Sequence record: PQ850606.1
Origin: Escherichia phage HeidiAbel_Bas97
DNA: 41,040 bases
Strand: one strand, 5' to 3'
A program made the position numbers and the translations under genes. The notes under the pieces are model-generated. The model was not told the origin of the DNA and did not search any database. It worked only from the letters and a program-made list of their open reading frames with translations. Positions 1 to 22,963 of the stretch are shown here, piece after piece (the first letter of the stretch is position 1; each line of letters begins with the position of its first letter).

Positions 1-525
1 TTGGCTAAGACTATTAAGGGCCGAACCGTTAACCGCACCGGCCTGGCGGAAGTTTTCGGGGTGGCATTGCCCACCGTGGATATGTGGAGAAAAGACGGCT
101 GCCCGGTGGTCACGATGGGTGGCCGTGGCAAAGAATGGGAGTTTGACACCGCCGAAGTTGCCAACTGGTTGCGTGACCGCGACGTGCGCGCCGCCACTGG
201 CGACAAGGTGACTGACCAGGAAGAATTGAAGCGCCGCAAGCTGGCAGCCGAAACCGAAAAAGCAGAACTGGAACTGGCCAAAGCCAAAGGCGAAGTGGCA
301 CCACTGGACCAGGTTGAACGCGCCGTTGCCCGCGCCTTCGCGGAAGTGCGCGCCGGTATGCGTAACCTGCCACAGCGCACCGTTTCAATGCTTATCGGTG
401 AAACCGATGAACGCCGGTTCAAATCGGTGATGATGGGCGAAATTGACGAAGTGCTGAAATCGCTGGTGACCGCTTCCCTGCTGGATGGCTATGACGAAGG
501 GGGCGACGGTGACAGCGAAGAATAA
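1..525 (+). CDS. Terminase small subunit (lambda Nu1-like); TTG start at window edge, may be 5' truncated or rotated
   Basis: N-terminal HTH region (TVNRTGLAEVFGVALPTVDMWRKDGCPV) resembles lambda Nu1 N-terminus; sits directly upstream of and overlaps the large terminase gene. Confidence 0.75.
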   Translation: MAKTIKGRTVNRTGLAEVFGVALPTVDMWRKDGCPVVTMGGRGKEWEFDTAEVANWLRDRDVRAATGDKVTDQEELKRRKLAAETEKAELELAKAKGEVAPLDQVERAVARAFAEVRAGMRNLPQRTVSMLIGETDERRFKSVMMGEIDEVLKSLVTASLLDGYDEGGDGDSEE

Positions 526-2533
526 CCCGTTTGCCAACATTGAAGGCATTGACCAGGCCATCCGGCGCGCACAACAACAATTGTTGCCGCCGCCAGACAT
601 GAAGCCATCAGAGTGGGCGCAGGCCAATATCCGCATTCCGTCTGGCAACGCCGTGCCAGGACCGCTGCGCCTGGATAACGCGCCATACCAGCGCGAACCA
701 ATGGACATGCTGGTTGACCCGGATTGCTACCGCGTAACGCTGATGTGGGGCGCGCAGGTGGGCAAAACGATGCTGGCACTGTGCGTGCAGGCGTACAGCG
801 TAGCAGCGGAACCGCGCAGCCAGATGATGATGCAGCCAAGCCAGGATGACTTGCGCACCTGGCTGGAAACGAAATTCAACCCGCTGGCGGAAGAATGCGC
901 GCCGGTAAACAACGCCATTGCGAAGCCGCGAGGCCGCGATGGGGTGAACAACCAGAAAATGAAATCATACCCTGGCGGGTTCCTGATGTTCGCCTGGTCC
1001 GGTTCACCAAAGACCATGCGCGGGCGTTCAGCGCCGCTGATTGTATGTGACGAGGTAGACGGATATGAACGAACCAGCGAAGGGCACCCGGTTGGCCTGC
1101 TGTGGCAGCGTTCTGCCACCTTCGGTGACCAGCGGTTTTTGCTGGAAATCAGCACCCCTACCCTTAAGGGTGAATCGTACATCGAAAAAGCGTATGAAAT
1201 GGGCGACCAGCGGCACTTCTTTGTTTGCTGCCCGCACTGTGACGATCACGTTACGCTTGAATGGGAAAACATCAAATGGGATGGCCAGCGCGAAACCGAC
1301 GCGGAAACGCTGGCGGCCATCGAAGAACAGAAGCCGGAAACCGCGCACCTGTATTGCCCATCGTGCGGCGCGCAGTGGAATGACGGCGAACGGATAGCGG
1401 CTATCCGCCAGGCCGAAGGAAAGGGCGCAGGCTGGAAGGCATCCAGGCCGTTTGAAGGGCACGCCAGCTACCACCTGAACGAACTATACAGCACATTCCG
1501 TAAAGTGCCGGCCATCGTGCGTGACTACCTGGACAAGCTGAAAACCGACGACTTGCAAACCTTCACCAACGTGAGCCTGGCGCGCACCTGGGAAGAAGAA
1601 GGCGACAAGGTTGACCCGGATTCACTGATGGCGCGCCGCGAGGAATACGCAGCGCCGGTGCCTGCTGGTGGGCTGTATATCACCGCAGGCATAGACATGC
1701 AGGTTGACCGCCTGGAATGTGAGGTGGTGGCCTGGGGCGTGGGTGAAGAATCCTGGTCATTGGGTTACCACGTCCTGTGGGGCGACCCGCTGACGCCTGA
1801 CCCCTGGGATGCGCTGGATGACCTGCTGGCGGAAACCTACCAGCACGAAACCGGGGCCATCATGCCGATCATGGCCGCCTGCCTCGATACCGGGGGCACC
1901 AGCGGTTACACACAGGCCGCCTACGAATACGCCAGGGGGCGCACAGGCCGCCGCCTGTTTGCCATCAAAGGCGTGGGCGGATGGGGCCGCCCTATCGTGG
2001 AGAAGCCGCAGCGCAAGCAATCCGGGAAGGATGCCCGAAAGGTGGATTTATTCCTGGTGGGCACCGATGAAGCCAAGCTGATAACCGCAAGGCGTTTAAA
2101 CAAGACGGCACCGGGGCCGGGTTATTGCCACTTCCCTGCCGACCGCGATGAAGAATGGTTCAAGCAAATCACCGCTGAAAAGCTGACCATGCGTTACGTG
2201 AAGGGGCAGCCAATCCGCGAGTGGCGGAAACCGGACAAGGCGCGCAACGAAGCACTGGACTGCCGCAACTATGCGCTGGCCGCGCTGAAAATCATGCAGC
2301 CGTCATTCCGCCGCCTGGCTGAAAGGTTTGGTGTAGCCAACGACAACGCGCCACCGGAACGACGCAAGCGGCTGCCGAACGTAAAACCCATCGTGAAACC
2401 GGTGGAAGTGCCGCAACCGGCCAATGACAAACCCCAAGAAGAAGAAAAACAGCAAGTCACAGAGACTAAGCCCATTAAACGTTCCGCCAGGGCATCCAAA
2501 CGCCGTGGCGGTGGATGGGTTAGCCGCTGGTGA
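485..2533 (+). CDS. Terminase large subunit (lambda gpA-like)
   Basis: 682 aa; C-terminal region (KPDKARNEALDCRNYALAALKI) and overall length and order match the lambda gpA family; overlaps the small subunit gene. Confidence 0.9.
   Translation: MAMTKGATVTAKNNPFANIEGIDQAIRRAQQQLLPPPDMKPSEWAQANIRIPSGNAVPGPLRLDNAPYQREPMDMLVDPDCYRVTLMWGAQVGKTMLALCVQAYSVAAEPRSQMMMQPSQDDLRTWLETKFNPLAEECAPVNNAIAKPRGRDGVNNQKMKSYPGGFLMFAWSGSPKTMRGRSAPLIVCDEVDGYERTSEGHPVGLLWQRSATFGDQRFLLEISTPTLKGESYIEKAYEMGDQRHFFVCCPHCDDHVTLEWENIKWDGQRETDAETLAAIEEQKPETAHLYCPSCGAQWNDGERIAAIRQAEGKGAGWKASRPFEGHASYHLNELYSTFRKVPAIVRDYLDKLKTDDLQTFTNVSLARTWEEEGDKVDPDSLMARREEYAAPVPAGGLYITAGIDMQVDRLECEVVAWGVGEESWSLGYHVLWGDPLTPDPWDALDDLLAETYQHETGAIMPIMAACLDTGGTSGYTQAAYEYARGRTGRRLFAIKGVGGWGRPIVEKPQRKQSGKDARKVDLFLVGTDEAKLITARRLNKTAPGPGYCHFPADRDEEWFKQITAEKLTMRYVKGQPIREWRKPDKARNEALDCRNYALAALKIMQPSFRRLAERFGVANDNAPPERRKRLPNVKPIVKPVEVPQPANDKPQEEEKQQVTETKPIKRSARASKRRGGGWVSRW
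2426..2442 (+). promoter_or_regulatory. Conserved 17-mer GACAAACCCCAAGAAGA, copy 1
   Basis: Exact 17-nt match to three other sites; about 95 nt upstream of the ORF at 2540. Confidence 0.45.
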
Positions 2534-2539
2534 CAAATA

Positions 2540-3079
2540 GTGAAATGCAGCCAATTACCGCAGAAAATTACAGCCGGGTTGACGTTTGAATCACGTCTGA
2601 ACCTGCCAGACTACCCGGCTACTGAATGGGCTGTGCGGCTGCTGCTGCGCGGCCCGCAATCAATCGACGTTCCAGCAGTAGTTGACGGCAAAACCAGCGT
2701 CATCCGCGCCGCTGCTGGCGTTACTGGCACCTGGCCTGCTGGTGAATACTGGTATTCAATCCGCGCAACACGCGGTTCTGACGTTGTGGAAGTGGGCAGC
2801 GGCCAAATCACCATCATGCCGGACCTGGCAGCCGCCGAAGCTGGTTACACCGCAAAAACACACGCGCAACGCACCCTGGAAGCTATTGAAGCCGTCATAG
2901 AAAAGCGCGCGTCAATGGACCAGGAACGCTACCGCATCAATAACCGCGAGTTATACCGCACCCCGATTGCCGATCTGCTGAAACTGCGCGACCTGTACCG
3001 CCTGGAAGTAGCACGCGAACAGCAGGCACAGCGCGGATGCAATCCATTCGGGCGCAAAGTACGGGTGAGCCTTCGCTAA
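2540..3079 (+). CDS. Putative head-tail joining protein (gpW-like C-terminal region); GTG start, exact start uncertain
   Basis: Lies between terminase and portal as lambda W does; C-terminus is basic and Arg-rich like gpW; stop overlaps the portal ATG (TAATG). Confidence 0.4.
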   Translation: MKCSQLPQKITAGLTFESRLNLPDYPATEWAVRLLLRGPQSIDVPAVVDGKTSVIRAAAGVTGTWPAGEYWYSIRATRGSDVVEVGSGQITIMPDLAAAEAGYTAKTHAQRTLEAIEAVIEKRASMDQERYRINNRELYRTPIADLLKLRDLYRLEVAREQQAQRGCNPFGRKVRVSLR

Positions 3080-4635
3080 TGAAACTGTGGCCATTTACCA
3101 GAAATAAGCCTGCCGAACAGGCACAACAGCCGCGCACGCGGCGTTTACCGCTTAACCGCCTGGCTTCCCGCATGTTTACGGGTGCCAGTGTTGACCGGTT
3201 GGGCACCGCGTGGGGCACGCAGCCGCTGACGGCTGACGAGGTAATCAACAAAAATCAACGCATCCTGGTGGCCCGTTCCCGCGAACAGGCCGCCAATAAC
3301 GACTATGCCAAAAAATTCCTGCGCCTGTGCCGCAACAATATTGTTGGGCCAAAAGGCGTTCTGTTGCAGGCCAAAAGCACTGACAACACCGGAAAACTGG
3401 ACACCCTGGCCAACGAAGCCATTGAAACTGCCTTCGATAAGTGGGGGCACAAGTCAAACTGCGACGTGACCGGGAAGTTATCCTGGCGCGCCATCCAGGC
3501 TGCGTGCATCAACAGCGCGGCCAAAGATGGTGAATTCTTCGTGCGCCTGGTGTTCGGTGCCGATGCAGGGCCGTGGGGCTTTGCGCTGCAACTGCTGGAC
3601 CCGCAACGCTGCCCTGTAGACATGGTTGAAGATCGTCTGAATAACGGAAATTTCATTCGCCAGGGCATCGAGTTTAACCGCTACGGGCGGCCTGTTGCGT
3701 ACTATTTCAGCACGGTTGATGAATCCGATGATAATTACCGTTGGTCCGGGCGTGATTTCGTGCGCATTCCCGCTGATGAAATCCTTCACGGCTTCCTGGA
3801 TGACATGGTGGGGCAGAAACGCGGCCTGCCGTGGATGGCCACCAGCCTGTTTCGTATGCGCCACCTGGGTGGCATGGAAGAAGCCGCGCTGGTCAACGCG
3901 CGAGCCGGTGCCAACAAAATGGGTTTCATCGAATGGGATGAAAATTCCGCTGGTCCTGAGTTTGAAGATGATGACGAACTGATCATTGACAGTGAACCGG
4001 GTGAATTCCAGGTGCTGCCACAGGGCGCACGCGTCAAAGACTGGTCGCCACAGTACCCCAACGGCGAATTTGCCGTGTTCACCAAACAAATGCTGCGCGG
4101 CATGGCATCGGGTATGGGCGTTCCGTATAATGACCTTGCCAGCGACCTGGAAGGCGTCAATTTCAGTTCAATCCGCCAGGGAACGCTAGACAGCCGCGAA
4201 AACTGGAAAGAATTGCAGGAATGGTTGATTGAAAACCTGCATCAACCCGTTTTTGAAGCATGGTTGCCGCGTGCCCTGCTTGCTGGTCGCATCACCGTTA
4301 AAGGCCGCAGCCTGAAACCGGAACGCATCGACCGCTACAGCGATATTGAATGGCAGCCACGCCGTTGGGCCTGGATTGACCCGTCATCTGACGTGGCAGC
4401 CGCTGAACGGTCCAAAAACAACATGCTGCAATCGCCTGGCCGCATCATCCGTGAAGGTGGCAGCGACCCTGACACCGTTTGGAAGGAAACCGCCAGCGAC
4501 GTGGCGCGCATGATTGAGGCGTACACGCAGCACGGCATCAGCCGCGAAATGGCGGAAAAACTGGTCATGCAAAGCATGGGCATGGACAAACAACTGTTAA
4601 TGGGGCAGCAAAATGCAGAAAAACCCGCTGAATAG
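3079..4635 (+). CDS. Portal protein (lambda gpB-like)
   Basis: Recalled similarity to lambda gpB; ATG at 3079 overlaps the upstream stop; the track ORF starts 42 nt further upstream in the same frame. Confidence 0.85.
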   Translation: MKLWPFTRNKPAEQAQQPRTRRLPLNRLASRMFTGASVDRLGTAWGTQPLTADEVINKNQRILVARSREQAANNDYAKKFLRLCRNNIVGPKGVLLQAKSTDNTGKLDTLANEAIETAFDKWGHKSNCDVTGKLSWRAIQAACINSAAKDGEFFVRLVFGADAGPWGFALQLLDPQRCPVDMVEDRLNNGNFIRQGIEFNRYGRPVAYYFSTVDESDDNYRWSGRDFVRIPADEILHGFLDDMVGQKRGLPWMATSLFRMRHLGGMEEAALVNARAGANKMGFIEWDENSAGPEFEDDDELIIDSEPGEFQVLPQGARVKDWSPQYPNGEFAVFTKQMLRGMASGMGVPYNDLASDLEGVNFSSIRQGTLDSRENWKELQEWLIENLHQPVFEAWLPRALLAGRITVKGRSLKPERIDRYSDIEWQPRRWAWIDPSSDVAAAERSKNNMLQSPGRIIREGGSDPDTVWKETASDVARMIEAYTQHGISREMAEKLVMQSMGMDKQLLMGQQNAEKPAE

Positions 4636-6661
4636 CATCATTGGGGCCGAATTTACCCGCAAATCTGACAGCAAAACGCTGCCTGATTTCAACAAAGGCG
4701 GGCTGGTGCGCACTATGGAAGTGCGCAAGTTTGACACCGAAAAACGCACCGTAGAACTGGCTTTTTCATCCGAAATCGAGGTTGAACGCTGGTACGGTAT
4801 CGAAATTCTGGACCATTCGCCGGAAAGCGTGCGCCTGGACCGTCTGCGTGACGGTGGGGCGCTGCTGGTTGACCACGATTGGACTGACCAGGTGGGCGTT
4901 GTTGAATCCGTCAGCATTGACGCTGACCGCCGGGGGCGGGCCGTGGTGCGCTTTGGCCGAAGTGCACGCGCTGACGAGATTTTCCAGGACATCGTTGACG
5001 GCATTCGCAAGCATGTTTCCGTGGGCTACCGCGTGTTAGCGGCCAAGCTACAGGAAACGCGTGACGAGTGGCAGGATGTCTATCGCATCACTGAATGGGA
5101 ACCTTACGAAATTTCAATTGTGAGTGTTCCCGCTGACGCCAGCGTTGGCGTTGGGCGTGCGTTTGACAAACCCCAAGAAGAACAACGCGGCAGCAAATCC
5201 GATACTGCGGGCACCGTAGAGGTTCCAGCACCAACAAATATTGCATCTGAGGGCATTAGAATGGAAAAAATTCTGCGCGACGCAGCCGGTAACCTGGTGC
5301 GCGCAATGGTAGACGAAAAAGGCAACATCACGCAGGTTCTGGAAATGCTGGAACGTGCTGGCGATGATGCGCGCAACGCTGAACAGCGTGGCCGTGAAGC
5401 CGAAAAGGCGCGTGTTCGTTCCATCACTGAAATGGGCGAGAAGTACAACGCACGTGACCTGGCTTTGAAAGCTATTGGCGAAGGCACCACCGCCGAAGAT
5501 TTCCAGCGTTCCTTGCTGGACCACCTGAACAAGCCGAAAGACCCGGCACAACCGGCTGATGGCACCCGTTCCGGCAGCAAGCCGCTGTCAGAAATGCCGT
5601 CCAGCGTGATTGGTATGTCTGACAAAGACATCCGCCGCTATAGCATTTTCAACGTGGTTCGCGCGCTGGCTAACCCGAACGATGCAGCCGCACAGCGTGC
5701 CGCAGCGTTTGAAATCGAATGCAGCCACGCAGCGCAACAGCAGTATGGCCGCAGTGCAAAAGGCATCCTGATCCCCGACGATGTTCTGCGCGCATTCAAC
5801 GCTGGTGGCGCACCGAACACCCCGGCAGGTGCACAGACCGGTTCCAACCTGGTTGGCACTGACTTTATGGCCAGTTCGTTCATCGACCTGCTGCGCCCGC
5901 GTACCACCATCATGCGCCTGGCGCGTACTATGGGCGGCCTGGTTGGTAACGTTGAAATTCCGAAACAGACTGGCGGCGCTACTGCCTACTGGATTGGTGA
6001 AGGTGATGACGCAACCGAAACCACGCCGACCATCGGCCAGCTTGGTTTGTCACCGAAAACCGTTGCGGCTTACACCGACATTACCCGCCGCCTGCTGATG
6101 CAATCCACCCCTGACGCGGAAGCTATCGTGCGCGGTGACCTGGTGGCAGCTATCGCGCAGGCGATTGATTACGCTGGTTACTACGGCACCGGCACCAGCA
6201 ACCAGCCGCTGGGCCTGGCGAACTACACCGGCATTAATGCGGTAGACTTCGCAGCAGACAACCCGACTTATGCGGAACTGGTGCAGATGGAAACCGAAAT
6301 TGCGGCAGACAACGCAGACGTGAACAACATGGCGTATGTGTTGAACGCGCGTGGCCGTGGTGCAGCGAAAACCACGCCGAAGTTTGCCAGCGGTTCTTCC
6401 GTTGCTGACGCTGGCGTGATTTGGGAGCCGGGCAACACCCTGAACGGTTACCGCGCCGAAGTTACCAACCAGGTGCAGGATGGTGACGTGTTCTTTGGCA
6501 ACTTCGCTGACCTGGTGGTTGGTATGTGGGGCGGCCTGGACATGACGGTTGACCCGTACAGCCTGAGCAAATCCGGCGGCCTGCGCATCGTGGTGTTCCA
6601 GGACGTGGATTTTGCGGTGCGCCGCGTTGAATCCTTCGCGCTTGGCCGCAACGCAGAATAA
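4613..6661 (+). CDS. Prohead protease, scaffold (delta-like) and major capsid protein (HK97 fold) in one ORF
   Basis: N-terminal ~190 aa resemble an HK97-type prohead protease; central charged coiled-coil segment; C-terminal ~400 aa resemble an HK97-fold capsid protein; internal in-frame ATG at 5261 with a GAGGG RBS. Confidence 0.75.
   Translation: MQKNPLNSIIGAEFTRKSDSKTLPDFNKGGLVRTMEVRKFDTEKRTVELAFSSEIEVERWYGIEILDHSPESVRLDRLRDGGALLVDHDWTDQVGVVESVSIDADRRGRAVVRFGRSARADEIFQDIVDGIRKHVSVGYRVLAAKLQETRDEWQDVYRITEWEPYEISIVSVPADASVGVGRAFDKPQEEQRGSKSDTAGTVEVPAPTNIASEGIRMEKILRDAAGNLVRAMVDEKGNITQVLEMLERAGDDARNAEQRGREAEKARVRSITEMGEKYNARDLALKAIGEGTTAEDFQRSLLDHLNKPKDPAQPADGTRSGSKPLSEMPSSVIGMSDKDIRRYSIFNVVRALANPNDAAAQRAAAFEIECSHAAQQQYGRSAKGILIPDDVLRAFNAGGAPNTPAGAQTGSNLVGTDFMASSFIDLLRPRTTIMRLARTMGGLVGNVEIPKQTGGATAYWIGEGDDATETTPTIGQLGLSPKTVAAYTDITRRLLMQSTPDAEAIVRGDLVAAIAQAIDYAGYYGTGTSNQPLGLANYTGINAVDFAADNPTYAELVQMETEIAADNADVNNMAYVLNARGRGAAKTTPKFASGSSVADAGVIWEPGNTLNGYRAEVTNQVQDGDVFFGNFADLVVGMWGGLDMTVDPYSLSKSGGLRIVVFQDVDFAVRRVESFALGRNAE
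5165..5181 (+). promoter_or_regulatory. Conserved 17-mer GACAAACCCCAAGAAGA, copy 2
   Basis: Exact match; 80 nt upstream of the internal in-frame ATG at 5261. Confidence 0.45.
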
Positions 6662-6666
6662 CGATC

Positions 6667-6694
6667 ATGGCCGCTTCGGCGGCCATAGTCTTTT
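6667..6694 (+). terminator. Terminator/attenuator hairpin after the major capsid gene
   Basis: Perfect palindrome ATGGCCGC-TTCG-GCGGCCAT then a short T tract (TCTTTTCC). Confidence 0.5.
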
Positions 6695-6712
6695 CCGACA
6701 GGAGACAGTTTT

Positions 6713-7015
6713 ATGTCTGGTACTTACGTACTGAAATTGACTTCCGCCATTGCTATCAGCGGCGAAGTCATGAAAGCGGGTTCACTGGTTGAGGTTTCAG
6801 AGCTTGAGGCCAAAAATCTGTTGTCGCGCGGCAAGGCCGAGATGCACGACGAACAACCGGCGCGTGATGACGATGTTGAAATCACGAAAATGAACAAAGA
6901 TCAGCTTATCGCCATTGCAGAACAGATGGAAATTGAAGGCGCGGACAAAATGACCAAAGCGCAGTTGATTGAAGCCATCGAAGCCGCAGGCGAAACCAAA
7001 GAGGGTGACGAATAA
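6713..7015 (+). CDS. Small head-associated protein with Rho-N/HeH-like C-terminal motif
   Basis: AGGAGA RBS; follows the terminator hairpin after the capsid gene; C-terminus KMNKDQLIAIAEQMEIEGADKMTKAQLIEAIEAA resembles a Rho-N/SAP-type helix-extension-helix. Confidence 0.45.
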   Translation: MSGTYVLKLTSAIAISGEVMKAGSLVEVSELEAKNLLSRGKAEMHDEQPARDDDVEITKMNKDQLIAIAEQMEIEGADKMTKAQLIEAIEAAGETKEGDE

Positions 7016-7371
7016 TGCAACACGGCACATCTGTAACGGTTCTGGCCGCGCCAGCAACAATCATAGCCAGCGGCAACGGGGCAGCCGTCAACGTTGGTGA
7101 TTATCACGGCCTGTGCCTGCTGCACATGAACGGCATCGGCACTGCTGGCACCACTACTGTAAGCCTGCAACACAGTGATGACGGTTCAACCAATTGGGTT
7201 GACGTACCAAACACCACGTTTGCGCAGATCGGCACCGCCGCGAAGGCTGACGCTATCCTGTTTAACGCTGACCGATTCAAAAAATTTGTCCGCGTGAAGG
7301 ATGTTTCAGCCAGTTCCGGTTCGGCAATCCGCAGCGTTGTGCTGGTTGGCAATAAGCGGGAATCACAGTAA
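7015..7371 (+). CDS. Hypothetical head/neck structural protein
   Basis: Overlapped start (TAATG) in the head-completion block; no recognisable motif. Confidence 0.4.
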   Translation: MQHGTSVTVLAAPATIIASGNGAAVNVGDYHGLCLLHMNGIGTAGTTTVSLQHSDDGSTNWVDVPNTTFAQIGTAAKADAILFNADRFKKFVRVKDVSASSGSAIRSVVLVGNKRESQ

Positions 7372-7703
7372 TGCCCGCGCCGTCCTGGGAAAACCTGGAC
7401 GACTTTTTTGACCTTGACACCAACGGCGGGTTTGCATTTCCCACCGTTATTCATTCGCAAAAAGGTTGGACCAGAACAATTAACGCCATCTTTGATGATC
7501 CGTACTTCAACGCGCAAATTGGCGAGTATGAAGCGGACACCAGCAGCCCGCGCATCACGGCAAAGGAATCTGACCTGGCTGGCATCCTGCGTGGTGACAC
7601 AATCATTGTGGCCGGTGAAACCTTCGACGTGCTGGCATCCCCGGAACAGGATGGCACAGGCACTGCCGTGGTGAGGATGACGCGCCAAGATGCTGCACTT
7701 TGA
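7371..7703 (+). CDS. Putative head-tail joining / head closure protein
   Basis: Position plus conserved C-terminal pattern (RGDTIIVAGETFDV...DGTGTAVV) typical of phage head-tail joining proteins. Confidence 0.5.
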   Translation: MPAPSWENLDDFFDLDTNGGFAFPTVIHSQKGWTRTINAIFDDPYFNAQIGEYEADTSSPRITAKESDLAGILRGDTIIVAGETFDVLASPEQDGTGTAVVRMTRQDAAL

Positions 7704-8244
7704 CCTGGATTGGCAACAACTGCGCGGCGTAGCCACTGAACTGGAAGCCAGTGAAAAGCAGTTCAAAGCCTCATTAAGCCGCGCATGTAACCGGACGGCG
7801 GCAACCCTGCGCAAAATGTCTGGCCGTGGCCTGAAAGATGAACTGCAACTGCGCACAATGGCAGCTATGCGAAAGCGCCTGAAATCCATCAGGCTGCGCA
7901 CGCGCCAACAGGGCGTTGTGTTGTGGTACGGCTTAAATGATTTGCCGGTGAGTAGCTTTAAGGGCCGCGCCAAGCAGACCAGCGACGGGGCCACGTTCCG
8001 TGACCAGAAATTTGACGGTGCATTTGTGGGCCGCAGCACGGTGAAAGGCAAACGCACAGTGTTTAAACGTGCTGGCAAAGCACGCCTGCCAATCACTGAA
8101 CAGTTGATGCCCATTAAGGACAAAGCCGAAGTCTTCATTGAAGATGAAATCTTCACGCAGGTTGAAGAAATATTCTGGAAGCACTTCGAACGCGATATTA
8201 AGGCGCGCGTAAAATATTTTGATACATCTGACAGGTGGGCATAA
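7690..8244 (+). CDS. Putative virion morphogenesis / tail completion protein
   Basis: Basic 184-aa protein between head-completion and baseplate genes; translationally coupled to neighbours. Confidence 0.4.
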   Translation: MLHFDLDWQQLRGVATELEASEKQFKASLSRACNRTAATLRKMSGRGLKDELQLRTMAAMRKRLKSIRLRTRQQGVVLWYGLNDLPVSSFKGRAKQTSDGATFRDQKFDGAFVGRSTVKGKRTVFKRAGKARLPITEQLMPIKDKAEVFIEDEIFTQVEEIFWKHFERDIKARVKYFDTSDRWA

Positions 8245-8813
8245 TGAACGCCGATACTCACATTGATTTAGAAGTGCTGCACAACGCCATTGTGGCTGAC
8301 ATCAAAGCAGCATTCCCGCAACTGGTCACCGTGGAGTTTTACCAGGATGACCCGGAAGCGCGCAAAACACTGCCAATTCCCGCCTGCCTGCTGACCATCA
8401 GCGAACTGGAGGCAGACAACGAGATTGACCCCGGCACGGAACAGTTGGCCGTTGTGGCGACGTTTGAGGCGCATTTCATCATCAACAGCATCAGGACACC
8501 CCGCGCCGCCCTAGCCATCAGGACGCTGGCCGCTGCCTTCATGGCCTGGCTGCGCAAGCGCCGCTGGACCAACCCGGCAGACCCCGCCAGGAAACTGCCC
8601 ACAGGGCCAGCCAACGTGGTTGGCGGCTTCCCTGACGACTTCACCCCGGAGCTGGACAAATACGAGGTGTGGCGCGTGGAGTGGCAGCAAGTCATCCACC
8701 TGGGCGAAAGCGTGTGGAACGATGACGGCATAACCCCATCAGAGGTTTATTTCAGTTGGTCGCCTGAAATTGGCTTCGGCCATGAACAAGATTACGAAAA
8801 GGTGACACCATGA
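8244..8813 (+). CDS. Putative tail completion / neck protein
   Basis: ATG at 8244 overlaps the upstream stop (TAATG) with a GGTGGG RBS; immediately precedes the baseplate V gene. Confidence 0.4.
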   Translation: MNADTHIDLEVLHNAIVADIKAAFPQLVTVEFYQDDPEARKTLPIPACLLTISELEADNEIDPGTEQLAVVATFEAHFIINSIRTPRAALAIRTLAAAFMAWLRKRRWTNPADPARKLPTGPANVVGGFPDDFTPELDKYEVWRVEWQQVIHLGESVWNDDGITPSEVYFSWSPEIGFGHEQDYEKVTP

Positions 8814-9463
8814 GCGCAGACGTTAGCGAACTGAACCGCCAGCTAAACAACGTTGTGCGCATCGGCACCATTAAGCAACTGGACCTGGCCAACGCGCGTG
8901 CAAAGGTTTCCGTTGCTGGCTGCACCACTGACTGGCTGCCCTGGGGCACTAACCGCGCCGGTAAGCGCCGCGACTGGTCACCGCCTGTCATTGGTGAACA
9001 GGTGGTTTTGTTTGCGCCTTATGGCGATTTAGGCCAGGCGGTCATTGGGCCGTCAATCTTCCAGGAGGACCACGCCGCGCCAGCAGCCAGTGCCGACCAG
9101 GAAACAACCGTTTACCCTGACGGCACAACGGTGGACTACAACAGCGCCAGCAACACGCTGACCATCACCGTGGCTGGTGCTGGTAATGTCATCATCAATT
9201 GCAAACAAGCCAACGTGAACACTGAAACAGCCACCGTGACGGCATCCACCAGCGTCACCCTGGATACGCCTGACACGTTTTGCACCGGCAACCTGACCGT
9301 GGCCAAAAGCCTGACGATGGGCCAGGAGGGCGGAAGCGCGACTATGAAAGGCGCTGTTTCCATCGAAGGGCCAAGCCTGACCCACAACGGCAAAAACGTT
9401 GGCAGCGACCACAGCCACACCGGCGTGCAGCCAGGCGGCGGCAATACCGGCGCACCTGCCTGA
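8810..9463 (+). CDS. V: Baseplate assembly protein V (central spike), P2 gpV-like
   Basis: N-terminal gpV-like domain (VVRIGTIKQLDLANARAKV...DWLPWGT); ATGA overlap with the upstream gene. Confidence 0.8.
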   Translation: MSADVSELNRQLNNVVRIGTIKQLDLANARAKVSVAGCTTDWLPWGTNRAGKRRDWSPPVIGEQVVLFAPYGDLGQAVIGPSIFQEDHAAPAASADQETTVYPDGTTVDYNSASNTLTITVAGAGNVIINCKQANVNTETATVTASTSVTLDTPDTFCTGNLTVAKSLTMGQEGGSATMKGAVSIEGPSLTHNGKNVGSDHSHTGVQPGGGNTGAPA

Positions 9464-9466
9464 CCT

Positions 9467-9483
9467 GACAAACCCCAAGAAGA
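9467..9483 (+). promoter_or_regulatory. Conserved 17-mer GACAAACCCCAAGAAGA, copy 3
   Basis: Exact match in the V-W intergenic gap, 34 nt upstream of the W ATG. Confidence 0.45.
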
Positions 9484-9516
9484 TAAACCACCTACCATGC
9501 GGGCATCATTGCCCGC

Positions 9517-9855
9517 ATGAAAGGTACAAACGCGGCTACAGGCGCGCCGCTGGATGGCATGGACCATCTGCGCCAATCCATAAGAGACATACTCACGACG
9601 CCAATTGGCACGCGGGTGATGCGCCGCGACTACGGCAGCCGCCTGCCCTACCTGGTTGACGCGCCGATGAACCGCAGCACGCTGTTGGACCTGTACGCAG
9701 CGACGGCGGAAGCGTTGGAAACCTGGGAACCACGCATCAGCGTGCAGCAGGTGACAGCCACCGCAGCCGAACCAGGGCGCGTGGAATTGTCGATTTCTGG
9801 CGAATACCTGCCAGACGGCAAACCGATAACTATTGATGGCATAGTGGTGACCTAA
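9517..9855 (+). CDS. W: Baseplate protein W (GPW/gp25 family)
   Basis: 112 aa with the gpW/gp25 signature (MDHLRQSIRDILTTPIGTRVMRRDYGSRLPYLVD). Confidence 0.85.
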   Translation: MKGTNAATGAPLDGMDHLRQSIRDILTTPIGTRVMRRDYGSRLPYLVDAPMNRSTLLDLYAATAEALETWEPRISVQQVTATAAEPGRVELSISGEYLPDGKPITIDGIVVT

Positions 9856-10758
9856 ATGGCCGGTTCTTACACCGTTATTGACTTATCGCAGTTGCCAGCG
9901 CCAACCATCGTTGAACAACTGAGCTTTGAAACAATCCTGGCGGAAATGATTGCTGACCTGCAAGCGCGTGACAGCACGTTTACTGCGCTGGTGGAGTCTG
10001 ACCCCGCTTATAAAATCCTGGAGGTATGCGCGTTTCGTGAACTGCTGGTGCGCCAGCGCGCAAACGAAGAAGCCAAAGCCGTTATGCTGGCCTATGCCAG
10101 CGGCACTGACCTGGACCAGCTAGGGGCCAACGTTGGCGTGAAACGCCTGGTTATCCGACCCGCAGACCCTAACGCGGTGCCGCCAGTTCCGGCAGTCATG
10201 GAAAGTGACAACGAATTCCGCGCACGAATCCAGCTTGCACCGGAAGGCTACACCACGGCAGGTTCCGAAGGCAGTTACGCGTTCCACGCTTTGGGCGCTG
10301 ACGCTGACGTTAAGGACGTGCAGCCCACCAGCCCGACGCCTGGCCACGTGGTCGTTTATGTTCTGTCACGCACTGGCGACGGAGCAGCGCCACAACCATT
10401 GTTGGACAAGGTGAACGCTACGCTGACCAAAGAAGAAGTGCGACCGCTGACCGACAACGTGACGGTCCAATCCGCGCAGATCATCACCTACACCATCAGC
10501 GCGGAACTAACCCTGCTGCCTGGCCCTGATTCAGAAGTGGTGCGCCAGGCCGCGTTTGACGCCGTGGCGGCATACGCCGAAGGCCAGCGCCGCATTGGCT
10601 ATGATGTCACGATGTCGGGCTTGTATCGCGCATTGCATCAGCCAGGTGTGCAGAACGTCAAACTGACTGCGCCAACCGTTTCCCTGGTGTTGGGTGACGG
10701 ACAGGCCAGCTACTGCACTGGCATAACTGTGACCGTGGCAGGTGAAACAGATGTCTGA
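9856..10758 (+). CDS. J: Baseplate protein J
   Basis: 300 aa, P2 gpJ-like, in the conserved W-J-I order. Confidence 0.85.
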   Translation: MAGSYTVIDLSQLPAPTIVEQLSFETILAEMIADLQARDSTFTALVESDPAYKILEVCAFRELLVRQRANEEAKAVMLAYASGTDLDQLGANVGVKRLVIRPADPNAVPPVPAVMESDNEFRARIQLAPEGYTTAGSEGSYAFHALGADADVKDVQPTSPTPGHVVVYVLSRTGDGAAPQPLLDKVNATLTKEEVRPLTDNVTVQSAQIITYTISAELTLLPGPDSEVVRQAAFDAVAAYAEGQRRIGYDVTMSGLYRALHQPGVQNVKLTAPTVSLVLGDGQASYCTGITVTVAGETDV

Positions 10759-11368
10759 CCTGCTGCCACCGAACGCAACCGCGCAGGAACGCGCGCTGGC
10801 TAACACCATCGCCAGAATCAGCGATGTGCCACTGGCTGCGCGCAAGATGTGGAACCCTGACACCATCCCGGCAAACCTGCTGCCGTGGATGGCCTGGGCG
10901 TTCAGCGTTGATGACTGGAACAACAACTGGACCGAACAGGAAAAGCGGAACGTTATCAAAAACTCGCTTTTCGTTCACAAACACAAAGGCACGCTGGCAG
11001 CAATCAAGAGCGCCGTTGAACCGCTTGGCTACATCATTCGCATTGTTGAATGGTGGGAAGATACGCCACAGGCCGAGCCTTACACGTTCCGCCTGGAAGT
11101 TGGCCTGCTTGATAAGGGGGTTGATGAAAGCATTTACGACCAGTTTACAAGGCTGATTGAAACCAACAAAAACCTGCGTTCGCACATGAAGGCGCTGACG
11201 ATTAAATCCGAAATCAACGGCGTGGCTTATTTTGGCGCGGGCATGGTGAGTGGCATCACGACCACTGTTTACCCGTATATTGCAGAAAACCTGGAAAGCA
11301 CTGGCGGAGTGTTTACGGCAGCGGCTGAACAGTCTGTGGATGCGGTTTCTGTTTATCCATTTACTTAA
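10751..11368 (+). CDS. I: Tail/baseplate protein I (start may be 10742)
   Basis: P2 gpI-like; overlaps the J stop; followed by the tail fibre gene. Confidence 0.75.
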   Translation: MSDLLPPNATAQERALANTIARISDVPLAARKMWNPDTIPANLLPWMAWAFSVDDWNNNWTEQEKRNVIKNSLFVHKHKGTLAAIKSAVEPLGYIIRIVEWWEDTPQAEPYTFRLEVGLLDKGVDESIYDQFTRLIETNKNLRSHMKALTIKSEINGVAYFGAGMVSGITTTVYPYIAENLESTGGVFTAAAEQSVDAVSVYPFT

Positions 11369-11384
11369 TATCCGGTGATAATTG

Positions 11385-12656
11385 ATGGCTACTTATTACA
11401 CGCTTTTGACGAAGATTGGCCAGGCGCGCATCGCCAACGCTGTAGCGTTGAATCAGATGGTGAACCTGACCTACATGGCTGTTGGCGACGGTAACGGGAA
11501 CCCTACCACGCCAAATGAAAACCAGACTGCGCTTGTGCGCGAGAAATACCGCGCCACCATCAACCAGTTGACGGTTGACCCTGAAAACCCAAACTATTTG
11601 GTTGCTGAAATGATTGTTCCGACCACTGTTGGTGGCTGGTCAATTTATGAAGTTGGCGTGTTTGACGACCAAAACCAGTTGATCGCGGTGGCCAACTTCC
11701 CTGCGACCTACAAACCTGAACTGGTAGAAGGTTCTGGCCGTGACCTGATTGTGCGCATTATCATTCAGGTTTCAAACACCAGCGTTGTGACGCTTAAAAT
11801 TGACCCTGCTATCACCCTGGCAAGCCAGGCTTGGGTTGCTGCCAACTACGTGAAAAAAATCACGATGGCTGGCGGCACCACCGGCCAGGTGCTGGCGAAG
11901 AAAAGCAACGCCAATGAAGATTTTCAGTGGGTTGACCCGACGGCAGCGGTAAACGTGATCGTTGATTCACAGACTGAAGAACAGACCCTTGCCAGCGGCC
12001 AGACCATCATCAACCTGGCGAAATTGACCACGCAGGCAACGGCTATCTATGTTGAAGGTGTGCGCCTGTACCCGGTCACTCACTACACCATCAACAGTGA
12101 CACGCGGCTGACGCTGAAAACGCCATACCCAAACGGTTCAAAAATCCTGGCCGTTCAGAATGACCCAACCAGCACAATTTCGCTGGCTTCAACCACACAG
12201 AAGGGCTTTACGATTCTGAGCAGCGCCACCAACTCTGACGATGAAACGAAAGCTGCAACACCGAAGGCAGTCAATGATGCTGTAGCTGCACTGGCTTCAA
12301 CGCTAGGGAGCGCTTCCGGTAGAACTGTCGGAAATGGCGCTAACCAGATCCCTGACATGAATTTTTTCACATCAGGAACCAACTGGTTTAAGCAACCAAA
12401 CGGATTCATTGTTCAGCGAGGTGTGTCAGTTGCTGGCGCGATTGGGTCGCCAACATTCATAACTTTCCCGGTGCCGTTCACTGATTATGCCAACGTGCAA
12501 ATCGTGGTTTCATATGACAACGCGGAACCCTATGTGACTTCAATTCCGACATTTGCCGCAACTCCGGTTAACACTGGATCAGGCTTTAGCCTTATGGGTT
12601 CACAGGTTCCCGGTTCAAACACCACTTATGCACGCTGGATAGCAATAGGAAAATAA
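11385..12656 (+). CDS. H: Tail fibre protein (P2 gpH-like N-terminus)
   Basis: N-terminal motifs match P2 gpH (YMAVGDGNGN, LIAVANFPATYKPELVEGSGR, FTILSSATNSDDETKAATPKAV); shorter than P2 H. Confidence 0.8.
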   Translation: MATYYTLLTKIGQARIANAVALNQMVNLTYMAVGDGNGNPTTPNENQTALVREKYRATINQLTVDPENPNYLVAEMIVPTTVGGWSIYEVGVFDDQNQLIAVANFPATYKPELVEGSGRDLIVRIIIQVSNTSVVTLKIDPAITLASQAWVAANYVKKITMAGGTTGQVLAKKSNANEDFQWVDPTAAVNVIVDSQTEEQTLASGQTIINLAKLTTQATAIYVEGVRLYPVTHYTINSDTRLTLKTPYPNGSKILAVQNDPTSTISLASTTQKGFTILSSATNSDDETKAATPKAVNDAVAALASTLGSASGRTVGNGANQIPDMNFFTSGTNWFKQPNGFIVQRGVSVAGAIGSPTFITFPVPFTDYANVQIVVSYDNAEPYVTSIPTFAATPVNTGSGFSLMGSQVPGSNTTYARWIAIGK

Positions 12657-12659
12657 ATA

Positions 12660-13091
12660 ATGAGCAAGTATATGTTTAGTCCATCAACCAACGCGTTCTA
12701 TCCGGTTGCGCTTCAATCAATATACGAAGAAGCAAACATGTGGCCAAATGACGGCGTTGGCTGTGAAGAAGATGTTTTCTCTGAATTTACCGGCGTGCCA
12801 CCAGAAGGAAAGCGGCGCGGGTCTGACAAGGATGGTAACCCGGCATGGGTTGACGTTCCGCCACTTACTAAAGAACAGCAAATAGCCAACGCAAAATCAA
12901 TGCAACAGTATCTGATTGATCAGGCTAATGATTTCATGAATTCAAAACAGTGGCCTGGCAAGGCCGCTATTGGAAGGCTGAAAGATGCAGAGTTGAATCA
13001 ATACAAGATTTGGCTTGATTATCTTGATGCGCTTTACGCTGTAGACACATCGACCGCGCCAGAAATCACCTGGCCAGAACAACCACAATAA
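12660..13091 (+). CDS. G: Tail fibre assembly chaperone (gpG/Tfa family)
   Basis: Immediately downstream of the fibre gene; Tfa-like C-terminus (YKIWLDYLDALYAVDTSTAPEITWPEQP). Confidence 0.75.
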   Translation: MSKYMFSPSTNAFYPVALQSIYEEANMWPNDGVGCEEDVFSEFTGVPPEGKRRGSDKDGNPAWVDVPPLTKEQQIANAKSMQQYLIDQANDFMNSKQWPGKAAIGRLKDAELNQYKIWLDYLDALYAVDTSTAPEITWPEQPQ

Positions 13092-13098
13092 TTATTCA

Positions 13099-13128
13099 GG
13101 CGCTGTTCCCGCAGCGCCATTTTTATTT
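13099..13128 (+). terminator. Rho-independent terminator after the tail fibre assembly gene
   Basis: GGCGCTG-TTCCCG-CAGCGCC then ATTTTTATTT. Confidence 0.6.
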
Positions 13129-13208
13129 GTAATAACCCGTAGTAATAACATGGCCATTACATTATATTAACCTTGCGTTTTCGCATATCATCATAGGTGC
13201 TTCAATGT

Positions 13209-13874
13209 ATGAGTCAGATATTAGAGTTTTGGAAAGGATTGTCGGGCGCTGTTCTTCCATTCGCTGGCGCTAATGCACCGACCGGCTGGCTAATGTGCGA
13301 CGGTTCAGCAGTAAGCCGCACCACATTTGCCGAGTTGTTCGCGTCTATCGGAACCACCTATGGAACTGGTGATGGTTCAACTACTTTCAACCTTCCAGAC
13401 CTGCGCGGGCGCGTAGCGGCTGGCAAAGACAACATGGGCGGAACCCCTGCTAACCGGCTAACAGCAGCAGGCGCAGGAATTACCGGCACGGCACTTGGCG
13501 CAACTGGTGGAAGCCAGACGCACACCATGACAACGGGGCAGATGCCAGCGCATAGCCACGGCGTGAACGACCCTACGCACGCGCATTCTGTTTATGACCC
13601 TACACACACGCACGCCGTCTATGACCCCGGACACGTTCACTCTTATGGCAGGGTTACGACCGGTAACGGGCAGGGTTCTGATATTGGTACGGCAAACAAC
13701 CACGTCACCGCAAACACCGGGGCTGCAACAACTGGCATCAGCCTTTATGCTTCTGCAACTGGCATCGGGATTTATGGAGCCGCAACCGGAATCAGCATCC
13801 AGAACCAGGGCGGTGGGGCGGCACACAACATCACACAGCCAACAATTGTTCTGAATCACATCATCAAGATTTAA
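13209..13874 (+). CDS. Phage tail collar domain protein (MdpB-like) with His-rich tandem repeats
   Basis: Tail-collar signature ([53 protein letters not shown]); bracketed by terminator hairpins. Confidence 0.7.
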
Positions 13875-13896
13875 CCCCTGGTAACTTGTCGCCTTT

Positions 13897-13920
13897 GCCC
13901 GCATCACGCGGGCTTTTTTA
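13897..13920 (+). terminator. Rho-independent terminator after the tail collar gene
   Basis: GCCCGC-ATCAC-GCGGGC then TTTTTTA. Confidence 0.6.
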
Positions 13921-13922
13921 CG

Positions 13923-13939
13923 GACAAACCCCAAGAAGA
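13923..13939 (+). promoter_or_regulatory. Conserved 17-mer GACAAACCCCAAGAAGA, copy 4
   Basis: Exact match just after the terminator at 13897-13920, 73 nt upstream of the sheath ATG. Confidence 0.45.
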
Positions 13940-14011
13940 AGCCACGCACGGTTCCTGCGACCATCACACTGCGAATTTTCACTGTGTGCACAGTCAATAG
14001 GAAACCGAATA

Positions 14012-15439
14012 ATGGCAGGTACTGATTTTTTACATGGCGTGGAGGTGCTGGAAATTGATTCCGGTTCACGCGTCATTCAAACCGTTAAATCGAGCGTCAT
14101 CGGTATTGTTGGCACCGCGCCAAATGCTGACCCTGACGCATTCCCGCTAAACACCCCAACCCTGATTGCAGGCAGCCAGCGCGAAGCGGCCAAACTGGAC
14201 ATGCTTGGCACCGGTGAAGGCACCCTGCCCAAAGCACTGGATGCCATCCTGGACCAGATCGGCGCTGTGGTCATCGTTGTGCGTGTTGAAGAAGGCGAAT
14301 CCGACACCGCAACGCTGGCCAACATTATGGGCGGCGTAAACGCATCAACCGGCAAGTATGAAGGCGTTCACGCACTGCTTGGCGCTGAATCCGTTGTGGG
14401 CTACTCGCCGCGTATTCTGTGCGTGCCTGGCTTCACGCATACCCGCGTTCAGGATGGCGTCACAGCTATCTCCATCGGCAACGGCGGCAGCGGCTACACC
14501 GAAGCGCCTACAATCACCCTGGCTGGTGGCGGTGGCGGTTCTGGTGCAACTGCGCAAGCAACTGTGGTTGGCGGCGTCATCACCAAAATCACCGTCACCA
14601 ACGCGGGTATGGGCTACACCGAAGCGCCAACCGTTACCATCACTGGCGGCAACGGCACCGGCGCAACTGCAACCGCATCCGTTGGCATCGCAGCCAATGC
14701 CGTGGTTTCTGAACTGCTTGGCATCGCCAACCGCCTGCGTGCTGTCATCATCGCTGACGGTCCAAACACCAACGACGCTGACGCCATCGCGTACCGCAAA
14801 GACTTTGGCAGCAAGCGCGTTTATGTGGTTGACCCAAAAGTGCTGGTGCTTGACGAAGACGGCACCACAATTACTGATTGGGCATCGCCGCGCGTGGCTG
14901 GCCTAATTGCCCGCATCGACAACGAGCGCGGTTTCTGGTGGTCACCGTCAAACCAGGAAATCTATGGCATCCAGGGCACAGCCCGAACCATTGATTTCAC
15001 CCTGGGTGACACGTCCAGCCGTGCAAACCTGCTGAACGAAAACGAAGTCACCACCATCATTCGCCAGGACGGTTTTCGCCTGTGGGGCAACCGCACCACT
15101 TCCAGCGATCCGAAATGGGCGTTTCTGTGCGTTGTTCGCACGGCTGACATCATCAATGACAGCCTGCTGCGTGCACACCTGTGGGCCGTAGACCGTGGCA
15201 TCACCAAACAATACGTCAATGACGTGATTGAAGGCGTGAACGCGTACCTGCGTAACCTGGTGAGCCTGGGCGCAATTCTTGGCGGCACGTGTTGGGCTGA
15301 CCCTGACTTAAATACTGCTGACCAAATTGCTGACGGTAAGGTATACTTTGATTTTGATTTCACGCCTGTTTATCCGGCTGAACACATTATCTTCCGCAGC
15401 CAATTGACCAACGATTATATTAGTGAGGTATTCGAATAA
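14012..15439 (+). CDS. FI: Tail sheath protein (P2 FI-like) carrying an internal 40-aa tandem duplication
   Basis: ATG at 14012 with AGGAAA RBS; sheath-like N-terminus ([12 protein letters not shown]) and C-terminus; the track ORF 5' extension is rejected. Confidence 0.9.
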
Positions 15440-15945
15440 TGGCCGCACGTGACGTTTTGAAAAACATCAACTTATTTGTTGATGGCCGTGGTTACGCGGG
15501 CCAGGTGGAGAGCGTCACGCCGCCCACCTTAACCCTGCAAACCGAAGAATTCCGCGCAGGCGGCATGGACGCGCCCATTGATGTGACGTTGGGCATGGAA
15601 AAGCTGGAAGCCAGCTTTGCGCTGCGTGCTTATGATTCTGACGTGCTGGCGCTGTTTGGCCTGTCAGAAGGTGCAAGCGTTCCGCTGACGTTTCGCGGCG
15701 CGCTGGAATCGTATGACGGCAGCGTGAAAGCCGTTGTTATGAACATGCGCGGCAAGATCACCAGCATGGAGCCAGGCACCTGGACGCCTGGGGAGCTAAG
15801 TTCCCTTAACGTGACTGTCAGCCTGAACTACTTCAAACAGCAGCACAACGGAAAAACCATCCACGAAATCGACGTGGAAAACATGGTGCGCATCATCAAC
15901 GGTGTAGACACCCTGGCCGCCATCCGTTCCGCGCTGGCGATGTAA
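15439..15945 (+). CDS. FII: Tail tube protein (P2 FII-like)
   Basis: 168 aa directly after the sheath gene (TAATG overlap); typical tube size. Confidence 0.85.
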   Translation: MAARDVLKNINLFVDGRGYAGQVESVTPPTLTLQTEEFRAGGMDAPIDVTLGMEKLEASFALRAYDSDVLALFGLSEGASVPLTFRGALESYDGSVKAVVMNMRGKITSMEPGTWTPGELSSLNVTVSLNYFKQQHNGKTIHEIDVENMVRIINGVDTLAAIRSALAM

Positions 15946-15952
15946 TTTTTAC

Positions 15953-15977
15953 GGCCAGTCATTTGGCTGGCCATTTT
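15953..15977 (+). terminator. Putative attenuator hairpin after the tail tube gene
   Basis: GGCCAG-TCATTTGG-CTGGCC then ATTTTC; weak T tract. Confidence 0.35.
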
Positions 15978-16005
15978 CAACAATCATTGTTTAAGGCGAT
16001 AAGAA

Positions 16006-16290
16006 ATGGCTAAATTACCGGATTACCTGAAATTCAACCACGAAACCGGCCACTGTGACATCACCCTGTCACGACCGCTGAAAATTGCAGGCGTTGACGT
16101 TCCCGTGCTGCGTATGCGCGAACCAACCGTGGCTGACCAGGAAATTGCAAGCGACATGGGCGGCAGCGATGCTGCGCGAGAAATCCAGACGTTTGCCAAC
16201 CTGTGTGAACAGGCACCCGATGACATCCGCCGCCTGCCGCTGAAAGACTATAAGCGCCTACAGGCTGCCTACGTAAATTTTATCGACTAA
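16006..16290 (+). CDS. E: Tail assembly chaperone E
   Basis: 94-aa ORF immediately upstream of the tape measure gene; ends just after a slippery heptamer. Confidence 0.7.
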   Translation: MAKLPDYLKFNHETGHCDITLSRPLKIAGVDVPVLRMREPTVADQEIASDMGGSDAAREIQTFANLCEQAPDDIRRLPLKDYKRLQAAYVNFID

Positions 16291-22895: not shown

Positions 22896-22939
22896 GTGTA
22901 ATTATGTGGCGTTATTCGCGGTTAAGGTTTTGCACTACC

Positions 22940-22963
22940 ATACCCTAAACCATACCCTAAACC
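22940..22963 (+). repeat. Tandem direct repeat ATACCCTAAACC x2 (putative integrase arm-type sites)
   Basis: Exact 12-bp unit repeated in tandem between the tRNA and int; a related pair lies at 23164-23187. Confidence 0.45.

Follow-up and report, generated by a model that had tools for sequence, protein, structure and literature searches.

A repeated 17-mer with a fixed −10 partner as the putative activator site of five late promoters in Escherichia phage HeidiAbel_Bas97

In phage P2, the late sites are TGT-N12-ACA dyads centered near −55, and the middle promoters of phage T4 combine a MotA box at −30 with a sigma-70 −10 element, through sigma appropriation by MotA and AsiA. The late promoters of phage Mu have a recognizable −10 element, no −35 element, and a 16-bp C site centered at −43.5 within a required region from −52 to −34 (PMC2582627). 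The Mu activators Mor and C recognize imperfect dyads in dimeric or tetrameric form (PMC2582627; bioRxiv 10.1101/2025.05.02.651988). Here we examine the 41,040-nt sequence of Escherichia phage HeidiAbel_Bas97 (PQ850606.1), called the window in its entirety, in which a 17-mer, GACAAACCCCAAGAAGA, recurs ahead of late operons. Probably, this 17-mer is the activator-binding half of five late promoters, with the protein encoded at 38833-39267 as its likeliest binder. As under C and Mor in Mu, the window would then hold several late promoters with a −10 and without a −35 element.

The window represents a Jilinvirus-type myophage that combines a lambda-type head with a P2-type tail and is not transposable. 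The Iiscvirinae/Jilinvirus group has been described as poorly characterized, and PT1 and the BASEL phage HeidiAbel are its described temperate-type members (PMC11990801). The window resembles these temperate-type members because it carries an integrase, an adjoining tRNA, and an S24-type cI-like repressor. Its late region is ~92% identical to that of Escherichia phages vB_EcoM-ep3 (ep3), ECO1230-10, and ECOO78 and Salmonella phage PT1, and ~78% identical to that of Enterobacter phage Arya and Klebsiella phage KA2-1. More distant relatives are Serratia phage MQ-4, Achromobacter phage Mano, and Pseudomonas phage PPpW-3. The relatives are classified in the genus Jilinvirus, subfamily Iiscvirinae.

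The repeated 17-mer and its fixed −10 partner

A window-wide motif search placed exact copies of GACAAACCCCAAGAAGA at 2426-2442, 5165-5181, 9467-9483, and 13923-13939, all on the plus strand and all at the positions given in the initial annotation of this DNA. The near copy reported there ahead of the holin gene was also recovered, as the two-mismatch variant GACAAACCCCACAAAGA at 39193-39209 on the plus strand, 63 nt before the holin ATG (39272). The early region contained no copies. With up to three mismatches allowed, shuffled sequence yielded 0.10 matches on average and never reached five in 100 shuffles, in agreement with the earlier judgment that such a set is unlikely to arise by chance. 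The gene context of the exact copies was likewise as first described, with two in intergenic sequence, one at the 3' end of terL, and one in the linker between protease and capsid. When the flanks of the copies were aligned, only a preceding T was conserved outside the 17-mer. No inverted symmetry was found in GACAAACCCCAAGAAGA, and comparison with relatives revealed no mosaicism in the sequence flanking the sites.

A weaker copy had also been proposed ahead of the tape measure gene, and this one did not hold. The 9-mer in question, CCCAAGAAG at 16404, lacks the 5' half of the motif and is part of the sequence that codes for the frameshift extension of the tail chaperone. Relatives do not carry their own motifs at the homologous place, and the 9-mer was rejected as a sixth site.

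The comparison with related phages that the initial annotation had recommended found the same five places occupied throughout. The motif is identical in the window, ep3, ECO1230-10, and PT1, and the more distant relatives carry motifs of their own: GACACCCCGCACGAAGA in Arya, GACAAGCCGCACGAAGA in KA2-1, GACAAACCCAAAGAAGA in MQ-4, GAAAA-N-CCGCAAGAGGA in Mano, and GGCAAACCCACAAGAGGA in PPpW-3. We then drew on a wider sample, assembled by a portal-alignment-anchored fetch of one genome per bacterial species, which yielded 59 prophage loci and, with the window and eight phages, 68 sources. An unbiased family search, based for each locus on the most recurrent 16-mer from the terL 3' region, identified a locus-specific repeat family of 3-5 copies, with a motif of 16-20 nt, in 51 of the 68 sources. 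The prophage hosts span alpha-, beta-, and gammaproteobacteria and include Acinetobacter, Halomonadaceae, Rhodobacteraceae, Burkholderiaceae, and Limnohabitans. Copies lie on the late-gene strand in 221 instances, with 3 matches on the opposite strand, and the global consensus of the 206 distinct sites is gGaAAaaCCgCcAgaGGAa. The sequence of the motif is specific to a locus or lineage while its positions stay homologous.

Within each locus, conservation is limited to the motif and a downstream A and T, four bases apart, at a fixed distance from it. At 218 of the 221 sites, this A-N3-T pair (A at −11, T at −7) stands no more than 1 nt from the offset of its locus, compared with 12.6% in the background; the offset was picked for each locus, which inflates the count somewhat and cannot explain it. 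The hexamer around this pair has the consensus [C/G]-A-N-A-[A/C]-T over the sites of all loci and, read as a promoter element, retains the two most critical bases of the sigma-70 −10; in the window it follows the motif at 19-20 nt. G is favored at −6 (50% of the 206 distinct sites). No TTGACA-like −35 hexamer lies 16-18 nt upstream of the −10 at the sites, and a scan of positions 1-20000 for consensus sigma-70 promoters returned 12 hits against 9.7 expected, none of them at the sites. If transcription starts 7 nt past the hexamer, the motif would span about −48 to −32, with its center at about −40.

The same operon starts in relatives, the fixed −10 spacing, and the absent −35 support the earlier proposal of a late-promoter or activator-binding element. 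We infer promoter activity and transcript starts, and with them a binder and a mode of activation, along the following lines. Each promoter would consist of the 17-mer, a non-conserved spacer of 19-20 nt without a −35 element, and a weak sigma-70-type −10, a combination that host RNA polymerase alone would use poorly. A phage protein made earlier would bind the 17-mer, which overlaps the −35 position, and either remodel the polymerase or bring it in. The likeliest binder is a helix-turn-helix (HTH) protein of 144 amino acids, encoded at 38833-39267 directly upstream of the lysis genes.

Asymmetric sites that are co-oriented with transcription and stand at operon boundaries would also suit repressor sites of the "stoperator" type known from cluster A mycobacteriophages, or recombination or module-boundary sequences, and the window encodes a cI-like repressor (29140-29682, minus strand). 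However, both the integrase and the cI-like repressor have been lost from ep3 and ECO1230-10 (PMC11990801), which still keep all five copies intact. Stoperators would not be expected to have a fixed −10 partner, nor to number only five, all at late operon starts and none in the early region, and the flanks at the sites are not mosaic. We consider a repressor or boundary function scarcely credible.

Predicted transcripts from the five sites

The upstream element of the first promoter, P1 (2426-2442, plus strand; about −48 to −32), lies inside the 3' end of terL (485-2533), in whose frame it encodes D-K-P-Q-E-E. The −10-like hexamer GAGACT (2462-2467, plus strand) begins 19 nt past the motif, placing the predicted start near 2474. 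P1 is predicted to drive a transcript of the head-tail joining gene (2540) and the portal gene. Every one of the 51 motif-bearing sources has the homologous site, ~650 nt ahead of the start of the portal gene.

Promoter P2 is embedded in the capsid gene. Its element (5165-5181, plus strand) lies inside the protease-scaffold-capsid fusion open reading frame (ORF) at 4613-6661 and likewise encodes D-K-P-Q-E-E; the hexamer GATACT (5201-5206, plus strand) follows at a spacing of 19 nt, with a predicted start near 5213. The homologous site, about 2.1 kb past the portal start, is occupied in 47/51 sources. The ORF (682 codons), annotated as "major head protein", joins an S78 protease to a scaffold-like region and a capsid domain of the HK97 type, and the second copy of the 17-mer lies between the two domains recognized by Pfam (Peptidase_S78, residues 84-176; Phage_capsid, residues 410-678). 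An internal ribosome-binding site and ATG had been noted 80 nt past this copy, and both are present, as GAGGG at 5249-5253 and an in-frame ATG at 5261, 48 nt past the predicted P2 start. They open a nested in-frame ORF (5261-6661, plus strand; M217 to stop, 466 amino acids) that comprises the scaffold-like and capsid parts without the S78 protease. A transcript from P2 would encode this 466-residue scaffold-capsid protein, and the capsid-gene ORF likely gives rise to two nested products. If made, the P2 product would offer a means of producing far more capsid protein than protease-capsid fusion.

The P3 element (9467-9483, plus strand) is intergenic, 4 nt past the stop of the gpV-like ORF and 34 nt before the ATG of gpW (9517), and its −10-like hexamer CATCAT (9504-9509, plus strand) follows at 20 nt. 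In 40/51 sources a homologous copy stands before gpW, about +6000 from the portal start. gpW is a gp25-like baseplate wedge protein of 112 amino acids (9517-9855, plus strand; Pfam GPW_gp25), and P3 would start the baseplate and tail-fiber genes. The window's gpW ATG lies 8 nt past the last T of the hexamer. Across ~45 loci from three proteobacterial classes, the ORF at this place has 111-114 codons and its ATG lies 6-8 nt (almost always 7-8) past the −10 T. No Shine-Dalgarno sequence was found before gpW in the window or in Arya. Because the ATG sits 8 nt past the −10 T, the gpW mRNA is predicted to be leaderless, starting on the A of the ATG. So exact a placement is hard to explain unless the hexamer sets the transcript start, and its conservation would make gpW one of the few examples of a late mRNA without a leader in phages of proteobacteria.

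The same stretch can fold into a hairpin, CATGCGGGCA-TCAT-TGCCCGCATG (9496-9519, plus strand), whose 5' arm and loop share bases with the −10 and whose 3' arm contains the start codon of gpW. Its fold energy is −20 to −25 kcal/mol, and the mean is −15.8 kcal/mol for P3 promoters versus −7.3 kcal/mol for the other sites. The hairpin recurs in many relatives, with arms that vary yet remain complementary. RNAalifold gave no consensus P3 structure, as the 5' arm shifts register between phages, and each sequence was folded singly in its place. With a start on the gpW ATG, the hairpin would be confined to read-through RNA from upstream.

This conserved hairpin adjoining the third copy, together with the position of all copies on the transcribed strand and of three inside coding sequence, might point to a motif that acts in RNA, as a processing, antitermination, or translational element of a long late transcript. 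Against such a role, no Rfam family matches (the sole hit in the window is a tRNA), no structure is common to the five copies, and, P3 aside, the sites have the same mean fold energy as shuffled sequence (median z = 0.07). One copy directly follows a terminator, and the invariant A-N3-T spacing, with the gpW ATG 6-8 nt further on, fits a DNA promoter. We judge an RNA function very improbable and return to the late-promoter reading for the remaining two sites.

The P4 element (13923-13939, plus strand) precedes the sheath, tube, and tape measure genes and lies 73 nt before the sheath ATG (14012). Its hexamer GACCAT (13959-13964, plus strand) predicts a start near 13971, from which the sheath, tube, and tape measure transcript would begin. 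The homologous site was found in 34/51 sources, beyond +9000 from the portal start, a distance before which many loci end. An intrinsic terminator, GCCCGC-ATCAC-GCGGGC plus TTTTTT (13897-13919, plus strand), closes the tail-fiber operon and abuts P4, with the hairpin at 13897-13913, then the T-run, and the P4 element right after. The same succession of terminator and motif occurs in ep3, Arya, KA2-1, MQ-4, Mano, and PPpW-3.

The fifth promoter, P5, would start the lysis genes and probably the terminase genes. Its element, the variant GACAAACCCCACAAAGA, is located in the 3' end of the activator gene, where it encodes D-K-P-H-K-D, and the hexamer AACACT (39229-39234, plus strand) predicts a start near 39241. 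A homologous variant copy at the end of the activator gene, about −5000 from the portal start, is present in 41/51 sources. The lysis copy is usually the most degenerate of its set, with 2 mismatches in the window, ~3 in KA2-1, and ~5 in Arya. The conserved D-K-P-x-x-D and A-N-D-N of the disordered C-terminal tail of the activator (39193-39240, residues 121-136) coincide with the P5 element and its −10, the hexamer AACACT encoding part of the conserved A-N-D-N-T. The family-wide "ANDN" conservation is probably that of a promoter and not of a protein function, and about a fifth of the activator sequence appears to be conserved as promoter.

All three coding copies are read in the same frame, as D-K-P-Q/H-E/K-E/D. 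We rejected the possibility that the motif is kept merely as code for D-K-P-Q-E-E, since two of the copies lie between genes and, from phage to phage, all five sites change jointly.

The candidate activator at 38833-39267

The candidate late activator (38833-39267, plus strand; 144 amino acids) has a conserved N-terminal domain, an HTH at residues 90-119, and a disordered tail at residues 124-144. It matches the PHROG 836 profile "late transcriptional activator" with E = 1e-30, and Mu C and Mor, which belong to PHROG 532, also match PHROG 836 over the C-terminal two-thirds of that profile (2e-11 and 1e-10). Pfam assigns only generic HTH families to residues 90-119 (HTH_7, GerE, Sigma70_r4_2), and among 34 homologues, 19 reach Pfam Mor (PF08765) at E <= 1, the best at 8e-6. 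The family alignment scored E = 0.0036 and a probability of 9% against the single Mu Mor sequence in hhalign, and hhalign comparisons with the single Mu C and Mor sequences were not significant. PDB sequence searches, with the single sequence and with the profile, returned generic LuxR/GerE HTH hits and a designed repeat protein, with Mor absent. The AlphaFold2 model, with a predicted local distance difference test (pLDDT) score of 83.6 and values below 50 for residues 124-144, gave no fold match to the Mor crystal structure, which has an N-terminal dimerization domain, a beta-strand linker, and a C-terminal HTH. We place the protein only provisionally in the Mor/C superfamily, as a remote branch of its own.

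The activator gene heads the late region in all relatives. A homologue is present in 44 of the 47 motif-bearing sources with at least 7 kb of upstream sequence and is lacking in 7 of the 11 motif-free sources (Fisher p = 1e-4, a value that ignores relatedness among sources that are not independent). The initial annotation had named the Mor-like protein at 38833 as a possible binder, and the co-occurrence with the motif bears this out in part; the protein is only a remote relative of Mor and C, and its binding to the 17-mer is what we infer.

Several points weigh against the late-promoter reading with the 38833 protein as binder. T occupies position −12 at only 3% of the 206 distinct sites, with C, G, or A in its stead, although this odd −10 profile, without a −12 T and with a −6 G, may be a signature of this activator class. 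The window site is asymmetric, whereas Mor and C bind imperfect dyads, and the window protein does not reach the Pfam Mor model. Searches of the accessible literature turned up no transcript, footprint, or reporter data for any member of this phage group. The Spearman coefficient of motif distance with activator distance is 0.35-0.47, and that with portal distance, the control, is 0.39; this comparison of pairwise distances, in which pairs are not independent, does not single out the binder. Finally, Arya and the window have the same recognition helix, SERTVKRHC, and motifs that differ in the 5' half, so the recognition helix alone cannot set specificity.

All Jilinvirus members share both the helix SERTVKRHC and the 3' half-site GAAGA. 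We speculate that recognition of the 3' half falls to the helix and that of the 5' half to another element, possibly the highly conserved N-terminal domain. In Halomonadaceae prophages, a Trp in the recognition helix goes with CAGCGGA motifs, an association that may reflect common ancestry.

A specificity not simply tied to the recognition helix, and a motif divergence that tracks the activator no better than the portal, would also fit late promoters whose 17-mer is read by some other factor. Three motif-bearing loci lack a detectable homologue in the fetched stretch, four loci have a homologue but no motif family of at least 3 copies, and further HTH proteins are conserved in the group, which also favor this alternative. 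The candidates are a ParB-like HTH protein (21369-22244), a small early HTH protein (33906-34139 or 26549-26770, minus strand), and a host factor. The ParB-like gene, however, shifts position between genera and lies in the early region in Mano and PPpW-3, and phages whose hosts are related have different motifs, which makes a host factor unlikely. The 38833 gene co-occurs with the motif and always stands directly before the lysis promoter, and its product carries the PHROG 836 match that Mu Mor and C share. We therefore consider a different reader unlikely and retain the 38833 protein as the candidate.

A bolder possibility, which we put forward tentatively, is that the PHROG 836 protein and its asymmetric 17-20 bp site constitute a late system mechanistically distinct from Mor/C and form a widespread regulon in prophages of alpha-, beta-, and gammaproteobacteria. 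A LuxR/sigma-region-4-like C-terminal HTH would then contact the 3' half and an N-terminal helix-hairpin-helix-like domain the 5' half, and the protein would in effect replace sigma region 4 over the −35 position. The regulon would include a conserved leaderless gpW mRNA and a promoter within the coding tail of the activator itself.

In three Caballeronia and Paraburkholderia prophages, the core of the motif is palindromic or near-palindromic (CCACACGTGG in L037, CTCATGTGG in L038, and CCACGTGG in L060). Their homologues match only the N-terminal 83 profile positions, the C-terminal DNA-binding part apparently having been replaced.

With the late promoters read as proposed, the analysis offers a testable transcription map of five late units, with starts predicted to within a few nucleotides, for the group and for about fifty prophages in three classes. 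Motif variants paired with their own activators would form a natural collection in which to trace the evolution of specificity within this Mor/C superfamily branch, and could supply orthogonal pairs of late promoter and activator.

Three further features of the window were observed in passing. Between a terminator at 38428-38450 and the activator gene lies an intergenic region of ~400 nt, in which GTCACC/GGTGAC occurs 13 times within 38452-38773, often as TTGGTCACC. The copies have either orientation and surround AT-rich stretches. By exact hexamer count, which replaced a one-mismatch search for GGTCACC across the window that proved too loose, the expectation is ~0.55 copies, and the count does not exceed 3 in any other segment of 330 nt. 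The arrangement resembles iterons, which would make it a candidate replication origin for the PriCT_2-Toprim-VapE/D5-like primase-helicase (34379-36688) or else an array for a regulator of the activator gene. The tRNA gene (22822-22895, minus strand) adjoins the integrase gene (23200-24411), and between them are two direct repeats, 22928-22961 and 23152-23185, each with a doubled CC(A/G)TACCC(T/A)AAA unit; these are possibly arm-type integrase-binding sites of attP. Within the sheath ORF, a 63-nt direct repeat (14468-14530 and 14588-14650; 73% identical, 120 nt apart) has weaker copies at 9148 and 18943. By eye, it reads in the sheath frame as G-Y-T-E-A-P-T-(I/V)-T-(L/I)-(A/T)-G-G-like segments, which suggests a duplicated insertion domain.

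Comparison with known late and middle promoters

The locus resembles phages P2, 186, and P4, with their activators Ogr, B, and Delta, in having four or five late operons of a P2-type tail module and an activator site upstream of a sigma-70 −10. No TGT-N12-ACA dyad was found upstream of the copies, where nothing is conserved beyond the 17-mer, and no Ogr-type zinc-finger family was detected among the window ORFs scanned. The Ogr model of phage P2 was rejected on the site and, among the ORFs scanned, on the protein; for the site, the initial annotation had anticipated this in calling the motif distinct from the Ogr site and free of dyad symmetry.

Like T4 middle promoters, the predicted promoters have a phage-specific element in place of the −35 and keep a sigma-70 −10. 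Unlike the T4 element, that of the window is longer and lies further upstream, and no MotA or AsiA homologues were found among the proteins scanned. A host alternative sigma factor was considered on account of a GGAAC at about −34 in some relatives and was rejected; the window motif has no GGAAC, and its −10 is sigma-70-like.

The proposed mode is most like the action of Mu C at Plys, PI, PP, and Pmom. As in Mu, a conserved element of 16-19 bp, common to all late promoters, would lie over the −35 region (by window coordinates counted from predicted starts), and the activator gene directly precedes the lysis genes. At Mu Plys, the C site and a TAGACT hexamer come straight after a terminator, and P4 similarly has a terminator directly before its activator site. 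Both systems have a small activator with a C-terminal HTH, and Mu C and Mor share the PHROG 836 profile match. There are also differences. The window element has no dyad and lies ~3-4 bp nearer the −10 (center at about −40), and a short CCNC-N2-GNGG core appears in only some relatives (e.g., CCGCCAGCGG and CCACGTGG). The window activator falls in PHROG 836 rather than 532, and a single activator gene fills the role that Mor and then C have in the Mu cascade. Coding sequence contains three of the five sites, and one of these three falls in the gene for the activator itself. The window, unlike Mu, is not a transposable phage.

Full-text searches turned up no earlier account of these promoters or their motif. 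Multiple late promoters dependent on an activator of the Mu C type are a well-known kind of element. The variant features at this locus are the asymmetric site, the coding-embedded copies, the self-encoded lysis promoter, and the predicted leaderless start.

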